Shown in pieces: positions 21,601 through 24,600 of a stretch of DNA of 64,000 nucleotides. Position numbers: made by a program. The DNA comes from Magallana gigas (lineage: Eukaryota), in assembly GCF_963853765.1 (NCBI RefSeq), contig NC_088860.1, positions 50,840,001 to 50,904,000 of the forward strand. Reading direction: 5' to 3'. Each line of letters opens with the position of its first letter. Position 1 is the first letter of the stretch.

Positions 21601-24600
21601 TTTTCAAAAATGTGGTTTGTTTTTATCGACATTTTCTCTTTTTTATGTCTCAAAGACTGGAAAACAACACATAAAATTTTGGTAAAAATAGTATTTGGAT
21701 TTTTTTTTCCAACTCAGAGATAAATTTTTTTTCTGTGGATCTTTTAAAAATATTAGTGTCATAAAAATGAACAACACTATTATCACTGGAGCAAGAAGAA
21801 AAAAAAATTTCTTCAGGACGTCAGGTTTCAACGTTGTACTAGTTAGTTATGAAGAAGTCGTCAGATTCAGAAATTTTGCAGATAAATGATTGAGATACTG
21901 AATGTTTTTACTGTAGATGACATAATCCCTGTAGTAGCGACTCGATCGGTCTTCTGATAAGCTTCTTAAATCAGTATTCATGACGTCACGTGTCACATGA
22001 TTTTCAATGGTGACATGAAGAATAGTGTATAAGGTGGTATGTAAATCACACATGAGTTCATAAAGCTTGTCTTGAACTGGTGCCATGAGGTCATAGAGCT
22101 CACTGTGCTCAAAGTACACCTCATCCTCTAGCACTTTCTCCAGAAATACCGCCAGAGTAGACAAAAGTCGGTACTCATTAAGTAAAATTGTCGATATCTG
22201 AAAACCAAAAAGATCAGAAAATCAATATTTTGTCAAACTTCAGTACAACTGTTAACAAACAATTTTTTTTCTCTATAAGTTATACAGCCTACTGTTAAAC
22301 TTACGTTGTTGTTTTTGCAAGCAGTCTGCATGTTATCAGATTCCTCTACCAAATTCAACCCTTCCATGTCGGCGGTCTCCAAGTTCGTAATCAAGAAAGA
22401 ATTCGTTAACCTACGTCCTAGGACTGGTATCTATAAGTAAGTATTCACATAAAAAACCTCATTCCTTGAACTCAATCATAAACAGAACAAAAGTTATAAA
22501 AAAAGGTCGGACGATTAGGTATATAAAACAAACATACGTAGTTTTTCTTTAGAACAATCGCAGCATCTTTCTGTAGAGTGGATTTCACGGACATTGCACG
22601 AAGAGCTTGTTCCACTGGGATGACCATGGGTGGCAGGGAGTCAGATGTGTCTCGTGAACAGGGGGTCTCCCATCGTAGGGTAGTACTTCTTTTTTCTATG
22701 TTGAGTGGGTGGGAATAAATTTGTTCACAATTCCAACTTACAACAGCTGAAACAAAGTTGATATTTCAATTAGACAGCATGGCGTTTACTTTCATTGTAT
22801 CAGATCATTTAGTTTAAAATATGTTGTCATAAAATTAAGATAGTTAGAGAAGTGGCAGTGAATACACGAACATCTGTTTACATTGCTATCTTAACAAATA
22901 TTTGTATAAAAATAGATATTCAGCTTTAAGTTGAAATCATTATTATTAAAATTTTAAGAACAACAGCAATATAGATCCTCTCACATGAATGCGATATTTT
23001 TATCGTTTTTCCGCGTTAACAAAACAATGTTATTGTTTTCCTTTTTTTAGGTCACCTATCTATTATACAGTGATTCTATTTTAGGAATTAAAGGGCCAGC
23101 GAACAGCGATTAAACCATTGACGATTTAAAAAAAAAAAAACCGGAAGACAAGAAGTAACATCAAAAAGCGTTCCATGACTCTTTCGAAACATTATTAACT
23201 CTCGTCAAATTTAAACCCCTAAGTAAACAATAAAACCTGGTACAGTCAGAATAAAACATAGTGTATACAAGCGTTGGCTACATTCTTCAGAGTCGGAAAG
23301 TTGTATATAAAGTACATTTAAAATACACATAACAAACTTATAACATGAAAATCGTTTCTCAATAATATATCGTATTAAGTTAAAGACGTTCATCTTAAGC
23401 TTATGTATTGTGTTTTTCTTTTGCCGTTCATATAAATAAATATCTTAAATATATTATACAACAACCCTATGTCTCATAAGATGAATACGTTCACTATTAT
23501 ATATAATATGTTATGAATCTATAATAGCTTTGACATACCAATTAGGAATGGTAGCAAAATTGTCTTATTCATTGTTTCTGTATCAGTGCTCAAATCGCCT
23601 TACCTTTCATGAGTGCTCTGTGGCCACTTATATTTATCAATCTGAGTGAGAAATTTTCGGCGAAACACGAAGAGTGGCCACATTGTTTTGGAAAGTTCTA
23701 ACGTCCAACAATCCCTCTCACCTCGACAACAATTCATATCCGGTGGAAGTTGTGGGCATGCGTGGAACTGATTTTCCCAGTTTCATTGTATGTCTTTTAG
23801 TAAAGTTACTTTCACTTCCGCGAATGCAGTAGGCGAATGCAGAGAATTCTTACGTTCACTCTGAATTAAATTCCACGGCGTTGGAGCGGCACATTTTATT
23901 TCCGCGAAAAGATTTTCAAACCTACATGAACTGATCTACCCGGAAGCCGAGTATAGATCACTGATACCTCCTCACATTGCTAAATCTACGGGGAATTATT
24001 GACTTATTGACATATAGTACTTACTTTGTTAGGACAATCGGGGAATATCCTCTTGTAGGTAGAGTCTTTTGAGGTACAATCGCTCTTTGGAAAAAGGTTA
24101 AGTCAACATTGCCAATGTTAAATTTTTAAAACTTTTTTCATATTCATAATCGATATTCAGGTTGTTTTTTTTTTTGCATGTTGTGTGCGTCCAGCCATTA
24201 TTATACGATGAACACGGAAGTACTTCGAGGTTTGAAGGAAATACAAAATCTATTACAAGGAATATTAGCATTGCTTCCTTAATTTTTGATATATATTTTA
24301 CACATTTGTATATTGCTGTACAAACTTTTTAAACTCATTGTTTCCTGTGTTGTGTACATGTATGTTTGTTTTCTCTAAAATTGATTTACTAATAACGTCA
24401 AACGGACCTACACTTCGACTATGTTTTGGGAAAATATGTTTGTGAATATATAGGTACAGCATATTTCCACATTAGCCTAATATGACAATACGTGAAATAT
24501 TATCATCTAGGCTTTACTGTTAACTTTTTAAATTTTTAATGACGCCATCTATGTTTATAATTAATGAGGTCATATAATGGCGTACGATTATCAATCAGTT

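Follow-up and report, generated by a model that had tools for sequence, protein, structure and literature searches.

The 64,000 bp stretch of Magallana gigas DNA analyzed here (NCBI RefSeq assembly GCF_963853765.1, contig NC_088860.1, positions 50,840,001 to 50,904,000; hereafter the window) carries three tandem paralogous genes on its minus strand. An initial annotation, made from the sequence alone, had singled out the second of these, paralog 2, as the gene of a putative pro-cytokine resembling the insect Unpaired (Upd) proteins, with a dibasic Lys-Arg (KR) site located just before a WxxPC motif. The best overall explanation of the results described below is probably that, of three long-chain cytokine genes lying in tandem, paralog 2 has evolved the slowest, with a conserved cysteine pair and possible processing at the KR site.

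The paralog 2 gene and its tandem copies

Paralog 2 spans 23572..21847 on the minus strand and consists of four exons; its product has 239 amino acids (aa), and all of its introns begin with GT and end with AG. An exon-by-exon count reproduced exactly the numbering of H24, K30-R31, WETPC (C41), C119 and LMCDL (C173) given in the initial annotation. The features of the gene are as follows:

23539..23572, minus strand: exon 1, with the ATG at 23572..23570, encoding MNKTILLPFLI and the first base of Ala12 (phase 1)
GT at 23538-7, minus strand: donor following exon 1, in the context G/GTATGT
22537..22746, minus strand: exon 2, running from the last part of the putative signal peptide through HPLNIEKR, STTLRWETPC and a linker into helix A
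22688..22693, minus strand: K30-R31 (codons AAA AGA), the candidate convertase site, at which a cut would leave S32 N-terminal
22658..22672, minus strand: W37-E-T-P-C41, the family motif [RK]WxxPC
22305..22430, minus strand: exon 3, encoding the AB loop with two short helices
22317..22319, minus strand: C119, in exon 3
21850..22197, minus strand: exon 4, encoding helices B, C (LMCDL) and D (RYYRDYVI), with the stop codon TAA at 21849..21847
22048..22050, minus strand: C173 of LMCDL, in exon 4 (helix C)

The junctions between exons 2, 3 and 4 were confirmed by P0001, a transcript-derived database protein that reads ..KKNY/IPVLGRR.. and ..KNNN/ISTILL.. across them and that is 100% identical to paralog 2 over exon 4 and 94% identical over exon 2. 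Paralog 2 was searched exon by exon, with P0001 and P0004 used as full-length stand-ins. Exon 2 matched the family profile with an E-value of 1.5e-5 (1.3e-5 with a profile free of close kin) and exon 4 with an E-value of 1.5e-40. Orthologues with 63-68% identity over exon 4 are present in Crassostrea virginica, Ostrea edulis and Saccostrea cucullata, where all three are annotated as "uncharacterized protein".

The two other copies flank paralog 2:

9099..10268, minus strand: paralog 1, with a tentative exon 1 at 10268..10235, exon 2 at 10058..9910, exon 3 at 9713..9621 and exon 4 at 9449..9099
35452..36425, minus strand: paralog 3, with the leader and exon 2 at 36425..36189, exon 3 at 35998..35888 and exon 4 at 35778..35452

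Both tblastn with exon peptides and the family profile run over six frames identified exactly these three paralogs, in which intron positions and phases are identical. No fourth copy was found in the window, the best further open reading frame (ORF) being 45065..45322 on the minus strand (E-value with the family profile: 0.55). Paralog 1 matched the family profile in exon 4 (E-value: 3.5e-22) and exon 2 (1.1e-3); it reads ..FLCACLGQTFG/APANWDSPC, with neither a dibasic site before the motif nor the helix-C cysteine. Paralog 3 also matched in exon 4 (E-value: 1.8e-17) and exon 2 (4e-4); it reads ..GHFVA/SRHISKPCP and lacks the Trp, the dibasic site and the helix-C cysteine. Relatives of these genes keep a cysteine at the helix-C position (P0017) or one residue earlier (P0007), unlike paralogs 1 and 3. 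The loss of this residue in the two copies is therefore recent, with the disulfide pattern being rewired. Instead of the helix-C cysteine, paralog 1 has two cysteines in helix D and the C-terminus. Intron 3 of this gene contains a long (CT)n microsatellite (9505..9612).

It had been suggested in the initial annotation that paralog 2 may be closest to the ancestral member. For this comparison, a kin-free profile was made from the 113 rows of a 129-row family alignment (A5) that are less than 40% identical to any paralog of the window, 16 rows being removed. Exon 4 of paralog 2 scored 113.2 bits against this profile, whereas paralogs 1 and 3 reached 60.1 and 32.5 bits, respectively; over exon 2 the three copies scored alike (13-15 bits). 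A FastTree phylogeny (LG+gamma) of the C-terminal half was calculated from 127 sequences after those with fewer than 70 aligned residues had been dropped. The three paralogs were placed in three separate clades, each together with other database sequences (support 0.999, 0.997 and 1.0). The duplications are therefore older than the database sequences grouping with the individual copies. With midpoint rooting, which is an assumption, the root-to-tip distance was 1.48 for paralog 2, 2.38 and 2.33 for the other two and 1.82 for the median sequence. By both profile score and branch length, the suggestion held: these sequence comparisons support paralog 2 as the least derived and slowest-evolving of the three copies.

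Family hallmarks and predicted fold

Judged by its sequence, paralog 2 is a member of a large family of invertebrate proteins whose hallmarks are an N-terminal [RK]WxxPC motif, a helix-C cysteine and, within helix D, RxxRDYxI. This family was collected with a profile (A3) that combines four oyster orthologues with the peptides encoded by exon 4 of paralogs 1 and 3; searched against 1.84 billion representatives, it recovered 150 relatives at E ≤ 1e-3, of which 29 also reached E ≤ 1e-10 and two E ≤ 1e-30. An alignment of 46 mostly full-length members (A4) shows that the P and C of WxxPC are invariant and that the W is kept in at least 90%, usually preceded by a basic residue. The AVxLEQxxxDE stretch of helix B and the RxxRDYxI motif of helix D are conserved across the same 46 sequences, and at least 90% of them have the helix-C cysteine. 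A word-indexed homologue search with A4 returned eight proteins, none of them newly named.

The pairing of WxxPC with a helix-C cysteine, noticed in a single protein by the initial annotation, is thus borne out as a family-wide hallmark. Both cysteines are present in 53 of the 57 A5 rows that cover both columns; three of the remainder have the helix-C cysteine alone and one the N-terminal cysteine alone. Among fragments in A5 that cover helix C alone, 66 of 69 have the cysteine. The conservation pattern is consistent with a structural disulfide that would link the N-terminal arm to helix C; in LIF and OSM, disulfides join these two regions. The third cysteine assigned to the AB loop, C119, was likewise located, in exon 3, and is kept in all four oyster orthologues, while only nine of the 129 A5 rows have a cysteine in this column. 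It lies within the least confident part of the mature model described below (P0001 residues 101-110, predicted local distance difference test score (pLDDT) 68).

Nine relatives of 311-360 aa (P0043, P0079, P0089, P0098, P0099, P0105, P0140, P0144 and P0153) form a subgroup with an N-terminal extension of about 100 residues. The extension is followed by a hydrophobic segment and then by the WxxPC cytokine domain, and most of the nine contain a conserved ..RDQRT.. motif in the extension (GMLDRDQRTAKLR in six). This layout resembles that of a type II membrane protein, as if the cytokine were anchored in the membrane.

The structure was modeled with AlphaFold2 using P0001 as the target and the alignment of 129 sequences. 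The resulting model (pLDDT 88.7, predicted template modeling score 0.84) has long helices at residues 47-72, 115-143, 149-173 and 198-229; the AB loop contains two short ones in addition. It supersedes an earlier run with only four orthologues, which was unusable (pLDDT 42.9). When the P0001 model was compared with the PDB using Foldseek, 30 of the first 31 matches listed were long-chain helical cytokines, including placental lactogen, prolactin, growth hormone (GH), LIF, IL-6, CNTF, IL-11, CLCF1 and G-CSF. For these 30 listed matches, the template modeling (TM) score normalized by target ranged from 0.43 to 0.78 and the Foldseek probability from 0.66 to 1.00 (with 29 of them at 0.93 or above). 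In the ESM Atlas, the neighbours of P0004 belong to the same cytokine families, with a score of 0.95; scores of at least 0.95 arise for about one in 100 shuffled proteins. These neighbours include a mollusc-dominated cluster (114 members, of which 11% carry Pfam IL6) and an unnamed arthropod cluster. Two results count against a cytokine assignment: the Foldseek E-values are weak (0.03-1), and a profile search of PDB sequences reached CNTF only at an E-value of 0.17, behind a spurious maltose-binding/RepA fusion. The agreement between the confident model, its PDB matches and its ESM Atlas neighbours upholds the cytokine claim of the initial annotation, and based on the model, paralog 2 very probably adopts a long-chain class I four-helix cytokine fold.

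The dibasic site and the two candidate first exons

It was proposed in the initial annotation that HPLNIEKR is a short propeptide ending in a convertase-type KR. The corresponding regions of paralog 2 and its relatives, with a slash following the basic pair, are as follows:

Paralog 2: HPLNIEKR/STTLRWETPC
P0005: HPLNIEKR/STTPRWETPC
P0006: LPLSIEKR/STSPRWETPC
P0004 (Saccostrea): YPLNQQKR/STTFRWENPC
P0014 (nearest to the Ostrea orthologue): LPVNPVKR/STTPRWENPC
P0010 (a more distant relative, with RR for KR): SPLIRR/STPRWTRPC

KR is kept in all four orthologue sequences with a visible N-terminus (P0005, P0006, P0004 and P0014), a count that leaves aside P0002 and P0003, whose models start downstream of this position. 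Orthologues lacking the dibasic site, which had been named in advance as evidence against the proposal, were therefore not encountered. The paralog 2 protein contains three dibasic pairs (KR30, KK78 and RR87), compared with 2.2 expected from its composition, and the weight of the site lies in its conservation among oysters because its occurrence in any single sequence is within chance.

As a convertase site, KR answers in part to the description given to it. It has the form [KR]-R followed by a residue other than proline (IEKR/S) and lies in a probably exposed stretch behind the putative signal peptide, but it does not match the furin consensus R-x-[KR]-R. As the P4 residue is Ile in paralog 2, Gln in P0004 and Pro in P0014, KR is a bare site of the prohormone convertase (PC) type rather than a furin site. 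A furin-type site, RQKR/TT, is present only in the distant relative P0018. In the P0001 model, KR lies at the boundary between a low-confidence tail and the ordered domain; since pLDDT rises there from approximately 50 to 82, the site would be accessible. A hydrophobic leader or anchor was recognized, by a crude window rule, in 34 of 49 motif-bearing representatives (58 motif-bearing sequences minus nine that were near-duplicates of the oyster orthologue, truncated models or, in one case, a doubtful match). Nine of these 34, P0018 among them, have a dibasic pair in the linker, compared with 3.9 expected when each linker is shuffled.

Several observations argue against processing at this site. 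The chance of a dibasic pair in a stretch of 8-20 residues is 6-16%, Arg is absent from P4, and 25 of the 34 leader-bearing representatives have no dibasic pair in the linker. Three of the nine that do have one belong to the oyster orthogroup, and one other has an unlikely site (GRKP beside the W). Furthermore, the putative eight-residue pro-segment (xP[LV]N..) is about as conserved as the residues that follow KR, a pattern that also fits an uncleaved, functional tail. The corresponding alternative is that KR is not cleaved and that the SxP[LV]Nxx[KR]RSTTxRW tail is retained as a basic N-terminal arm contacting the receptor or the extracellular matrix. Beyond the conservation of P-L/V-N and the scarcity of dibasic pairs elsewhere, this alternative draws on the Arg or Lys that stands just before the Trp in most family members, which makes basic residues a general feature of the arm. 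However, every sequence of the oyster group has [KR]R with S-T directly after it, sites of the similar form [KR]R-[STN] are found again in unrelated clusters (the furin-type RQKR among them), and KR occupies a low-confidence, probably flexible stretch. We consider an uncleaved arm to be a serious but tentative possibility. Cleavage of the paralog 2 KR, as judged from these alignments, may take place, although we lean slightly against it. The pro-cytokine reading as a whole is plausible, and the putative processing site is conserved within oysters, but the reading is clouded by an alternative, leaderless first exon.

Processing would also depend on which first exon is used. The exon at 23539..23572 is assigned by analogy only. 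The sequence MNKTILLPFLI-A-VVSWNCEQIYS is leader-like by eye, with exon 1 supplying the n- and h-regions of the putative signal peptide. We accepted this exon because clear leaders are present in P0004, P0010 and paralogs 1 and 3, and because the product has the conserved cysteine pair and a conserved N-glycosylation sequon (N-I-S/T, kept at the start of helix B in all four oyster orthologues). An alternative lies upstream:

23604..23610, minus strand: alternative first coding exon, ATGAAAG/GTAAGG, which when spliced to exon 2 gives MKAVVSW.. without a hydrophobic leader

If the donor of this upstream exon is left unspliced, ATGAAAGGTAAGGCGATTTGA forms a six-codon upstream ORF (MKGKAI and a stop codon; 23590..23610, minus strand) located 5' of the leader ATG.

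Two observations weigh against the leader-bearing form. First, P0001, the sole transcript-derived protein seen, skips the leader exon and has no signal peptide. It represents a cluster of 73 member sequences and starts with MKAVVSW, exactly as 23610..23604 spliced to exon 2 predicts, and it is therefore not derived from exon 1 (23572..23539). Second, P0002 and P0003, which are RefSeq isoforms from two other oysters, begin with MRWENPC. The main product might accordingly be leaderless: transcripts from the upstream exon would give the MKAVVSW.. protein, which would be intracellular or unconventionally exported, and KR would never meet a convertase. Besides the start of P0001, the donor of the leaderless exon (AAG/GTAAGG) is nearer to the consensus than that of the leader exon (TTG/GTATGT), and no leader was recognized in 15 of the 49 motif-bearing representatives examined (nine of 58 having been left out beforehand). 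Against this, leaderless database entries may be truncated gene models, as the leader is on a tiny separate exon, the clear leaders of P0004, P0010 and both other paralogs speak for a secreted form, and the disulfide pair and N-glycosylation sequon argue for passage through the endoplasmic reticulum. A predominantly leaderless product is unlikely.

Under the secreted reading, the leader-bearing isoform would enter the secretory pathway and its signal peptide would be cut after S23. The C41-C173 bond would pin the N-terminal tail to helix C, as in LIF and OSM. A convertase of the PC type, acting at what is not a classical furin site, could then cut after K30-R31 in the flexible tail, which would remove about eight residues and give a mature N-terminus at S32. 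The mature protein would then signal to JAK/STAT through a receptor of the gp130/Domeless type, to which it would bind as a ligand.

Relation to known helical cytokines

Paralog 2 is predicted to share the long-chain four-helix fold of the IL-6/gp130 family. The P0001 model aligned with LIF, IL-11, IL-6, CNTF (chain 1cnt_1) and CLCF1 over 171-199 columns with TM scores by target of 0.63-0.78, and the highest scores among the matches listed were for IL-11 (0.78), LIF (0.77; root-mean-square deviation 3.7) and CNTF/CLCF1 (0.72-0.74). The likeness to LIF and OSM extends to the N-terminal cysteine, which in the oyster family is conserved together with the helix-C cysteine, matching the disulfides of those two proteins. 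In contrast, sequence identity to the IL-6/gp130 family in the Foldseek alignments is only 8-18%, and the WxxPC and RxxRDYxI motifs belong to the oyster protein's own family. Neither the window exons nor their relatives matched the IL6, IL11, LIF_OSM or CNTF Pfam models at the gathering score. Two relatives matched IL11, the better of them being P0097 (24.3 bits; cut-off 25.8), and one relative matched LIF_OSM with an E-value of 0.0073.

Growth hormone, prolactin and placental lactogen are the other vertebrate proteins to be compared. With Foldseek they gave the best E-values (0.03-0.09), and in the ESM Atlas the top cluster, but their TM scores are below those of LIF and IL-11, and no Hormone_1 match was found among the 153 relatives scanned. 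That the family consists of helical hormones of the growth hormone/prolactin type, or of other secreted four-helix proteins unrelated to Unpaired and without JAK/STAT action, is quite improbable: although placental lactogen, prolactin and GH make up the six best Foldseek matches, Hormone_1 is carried by the first ESM Atlas cluster (structural match to somatotropin, TM 0.59) and Pfam Unpaired is not reached by the window exons or their relatives at its gathering score, the highest TM scores belong to IL-11, LIF and CNTF/CLCF1, the sub-threshold Pfam matches among relatives are to IL11, Unpaired and LIF_OSM rather than Hormone_1, and class I receptors and JAK2 also transmit the signals of GH and prolactin.

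The resemblance to Unpaired noted in the initial annotation, which also ascribed to Upd1 basic clusters upstream of WANPC, survives as a coherent lead to remote homology, but not as membership of the Pfam Unpaired family (PF15972; gathering cut-off 27 bits). Only two of the 153 relatives scanned matched PF15972, P0096 with 19.4 bits (E-value: 8.8e-4) and P0098 with 15.2 bits (E-value: 0.016), both under the cut-off. The paralog 2 exons had no Pfam match at E ≤ 10, those of paralogs 1 and 3 gave noise only, and P0004 had no Pfam match at E ≤ 1. The low yield of these Pfam searches tells against a relationship with Unpaired, as does the fact that the oyster proteins, at approximately 240 aa, reach the gathering score neither themselves nor through relatives. 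In its favor, the two arthropod-type relatives match PF15972 co-linearly from the WxxPC region (P0096 residues 8-154 to profile positions 22-168, and P0098 residues 126-294 to positions 16-175), the match of P0096 starting four residues before its Trp. P0096 was reached by the oyster profile across its full length (E-value: 7.4e-6) and is placed structurally in arthropod clusters (TM 0.94). Like Drosophila Upd1-3 and the Aedes Upd-like protein, the oyster family is invertebrate and predicted to be helical, with a leader in most members. From these sequence matches, we regard the case for homology of paralog 2 with insect Unpaired as evenly balanced. Upd proteins are described as hard to recognize outside Drosophila in a recent preprint (10.1101/2025.09.21.677592), according to which Aedes genomes had yielded no clear Upd homologues; a putative homologue is named Upd-like there. 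According to another source, neither Dome nor Upd3 has been structurally studied (PMC7378365).

An oyster protein already termed a helical cytokine is CgIFNLP, the Crassostrea gigas interferon-like protein, which has been linked to JAK/STAT genes (PMC9756803, PMC8218723). It is approximately 15 kDa and has been likened to class II cytokines, whereas paralog 2 encodes 239 aa with a predicted long-chain class I fold. Its size rules out CgIFNLP as an earlier name for paralog 2.

The 64 kb window as a whole is AT-rich (approximately 32% G+C) and contains one gap of N at 14974..15115. No receptor gene was found within the window, no Rfam match was obtained in it and its other large ORFs gave no Pfam match. 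Its other features are as follows:

5409..5697: 40 bp tandem repeat, seven copies, 96% matches, relatively G+C-rich
10852..12005: 49 bp tandem repeat, 23 copies, 89% matches, between paralogs 1 and 2, reading as long repetitive ORFs on the minus strand
29246..30555: 52 bp tandem repeat, 25 copies, 80% matches, which accounts for the repetitive ORFs at 29983..30740 (no Pfam match)
33931..34335, minus strand: ORF containing ..RYIDDVLS.., with no Pfam match at E ≤ 0.01

The ..RYIDDVLS.. sequence resembles the YxDD motif of reverse transcriptases, and this last ORF may be a decayed retroelement.

A survey published in 2026 (PMC13203501) reports that IL6 was detected only in vertebrates and that molluscs combine IL6R, JAK and STAT without a canonical ligand; according to it, no IL-6-like ligand is known from molluscs or most invertebrates, although molluscs have gp130/IL6R-like receptors. 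Our literature search, which did not extend to subscription journals and supplements, yielded no publication on an Unpaired or IL-6-type ligand from molluscs. The broadest interpretation of our results would be that a protostome-wide family, to which the three oyster paralogs belong, provides the long-sought Unpaired/IL-6-type ligand of the molluscan gp130/Domeless-JAK-STAT pathway, and that the choice of first exon in paralog 2 switches between a secreted, KR-trimmed pro-form and a leaderless form; taken together, we regard this as doubtful. Because it encodes a helical cytokine with a confidently predicted fold and with relatives in arthropod clusters, paralog 2 is a concrete candidate ligand in oysters, animals that matter both economically and for immunology. 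The KR site matters less; the defined mature N-terminus that it predicts, S32, would be relevant for the production of recombinant protein. More broadly, the oyster family may offer a bridge between insect Unpaired and the IL-6-type cytokines of vertebrates.

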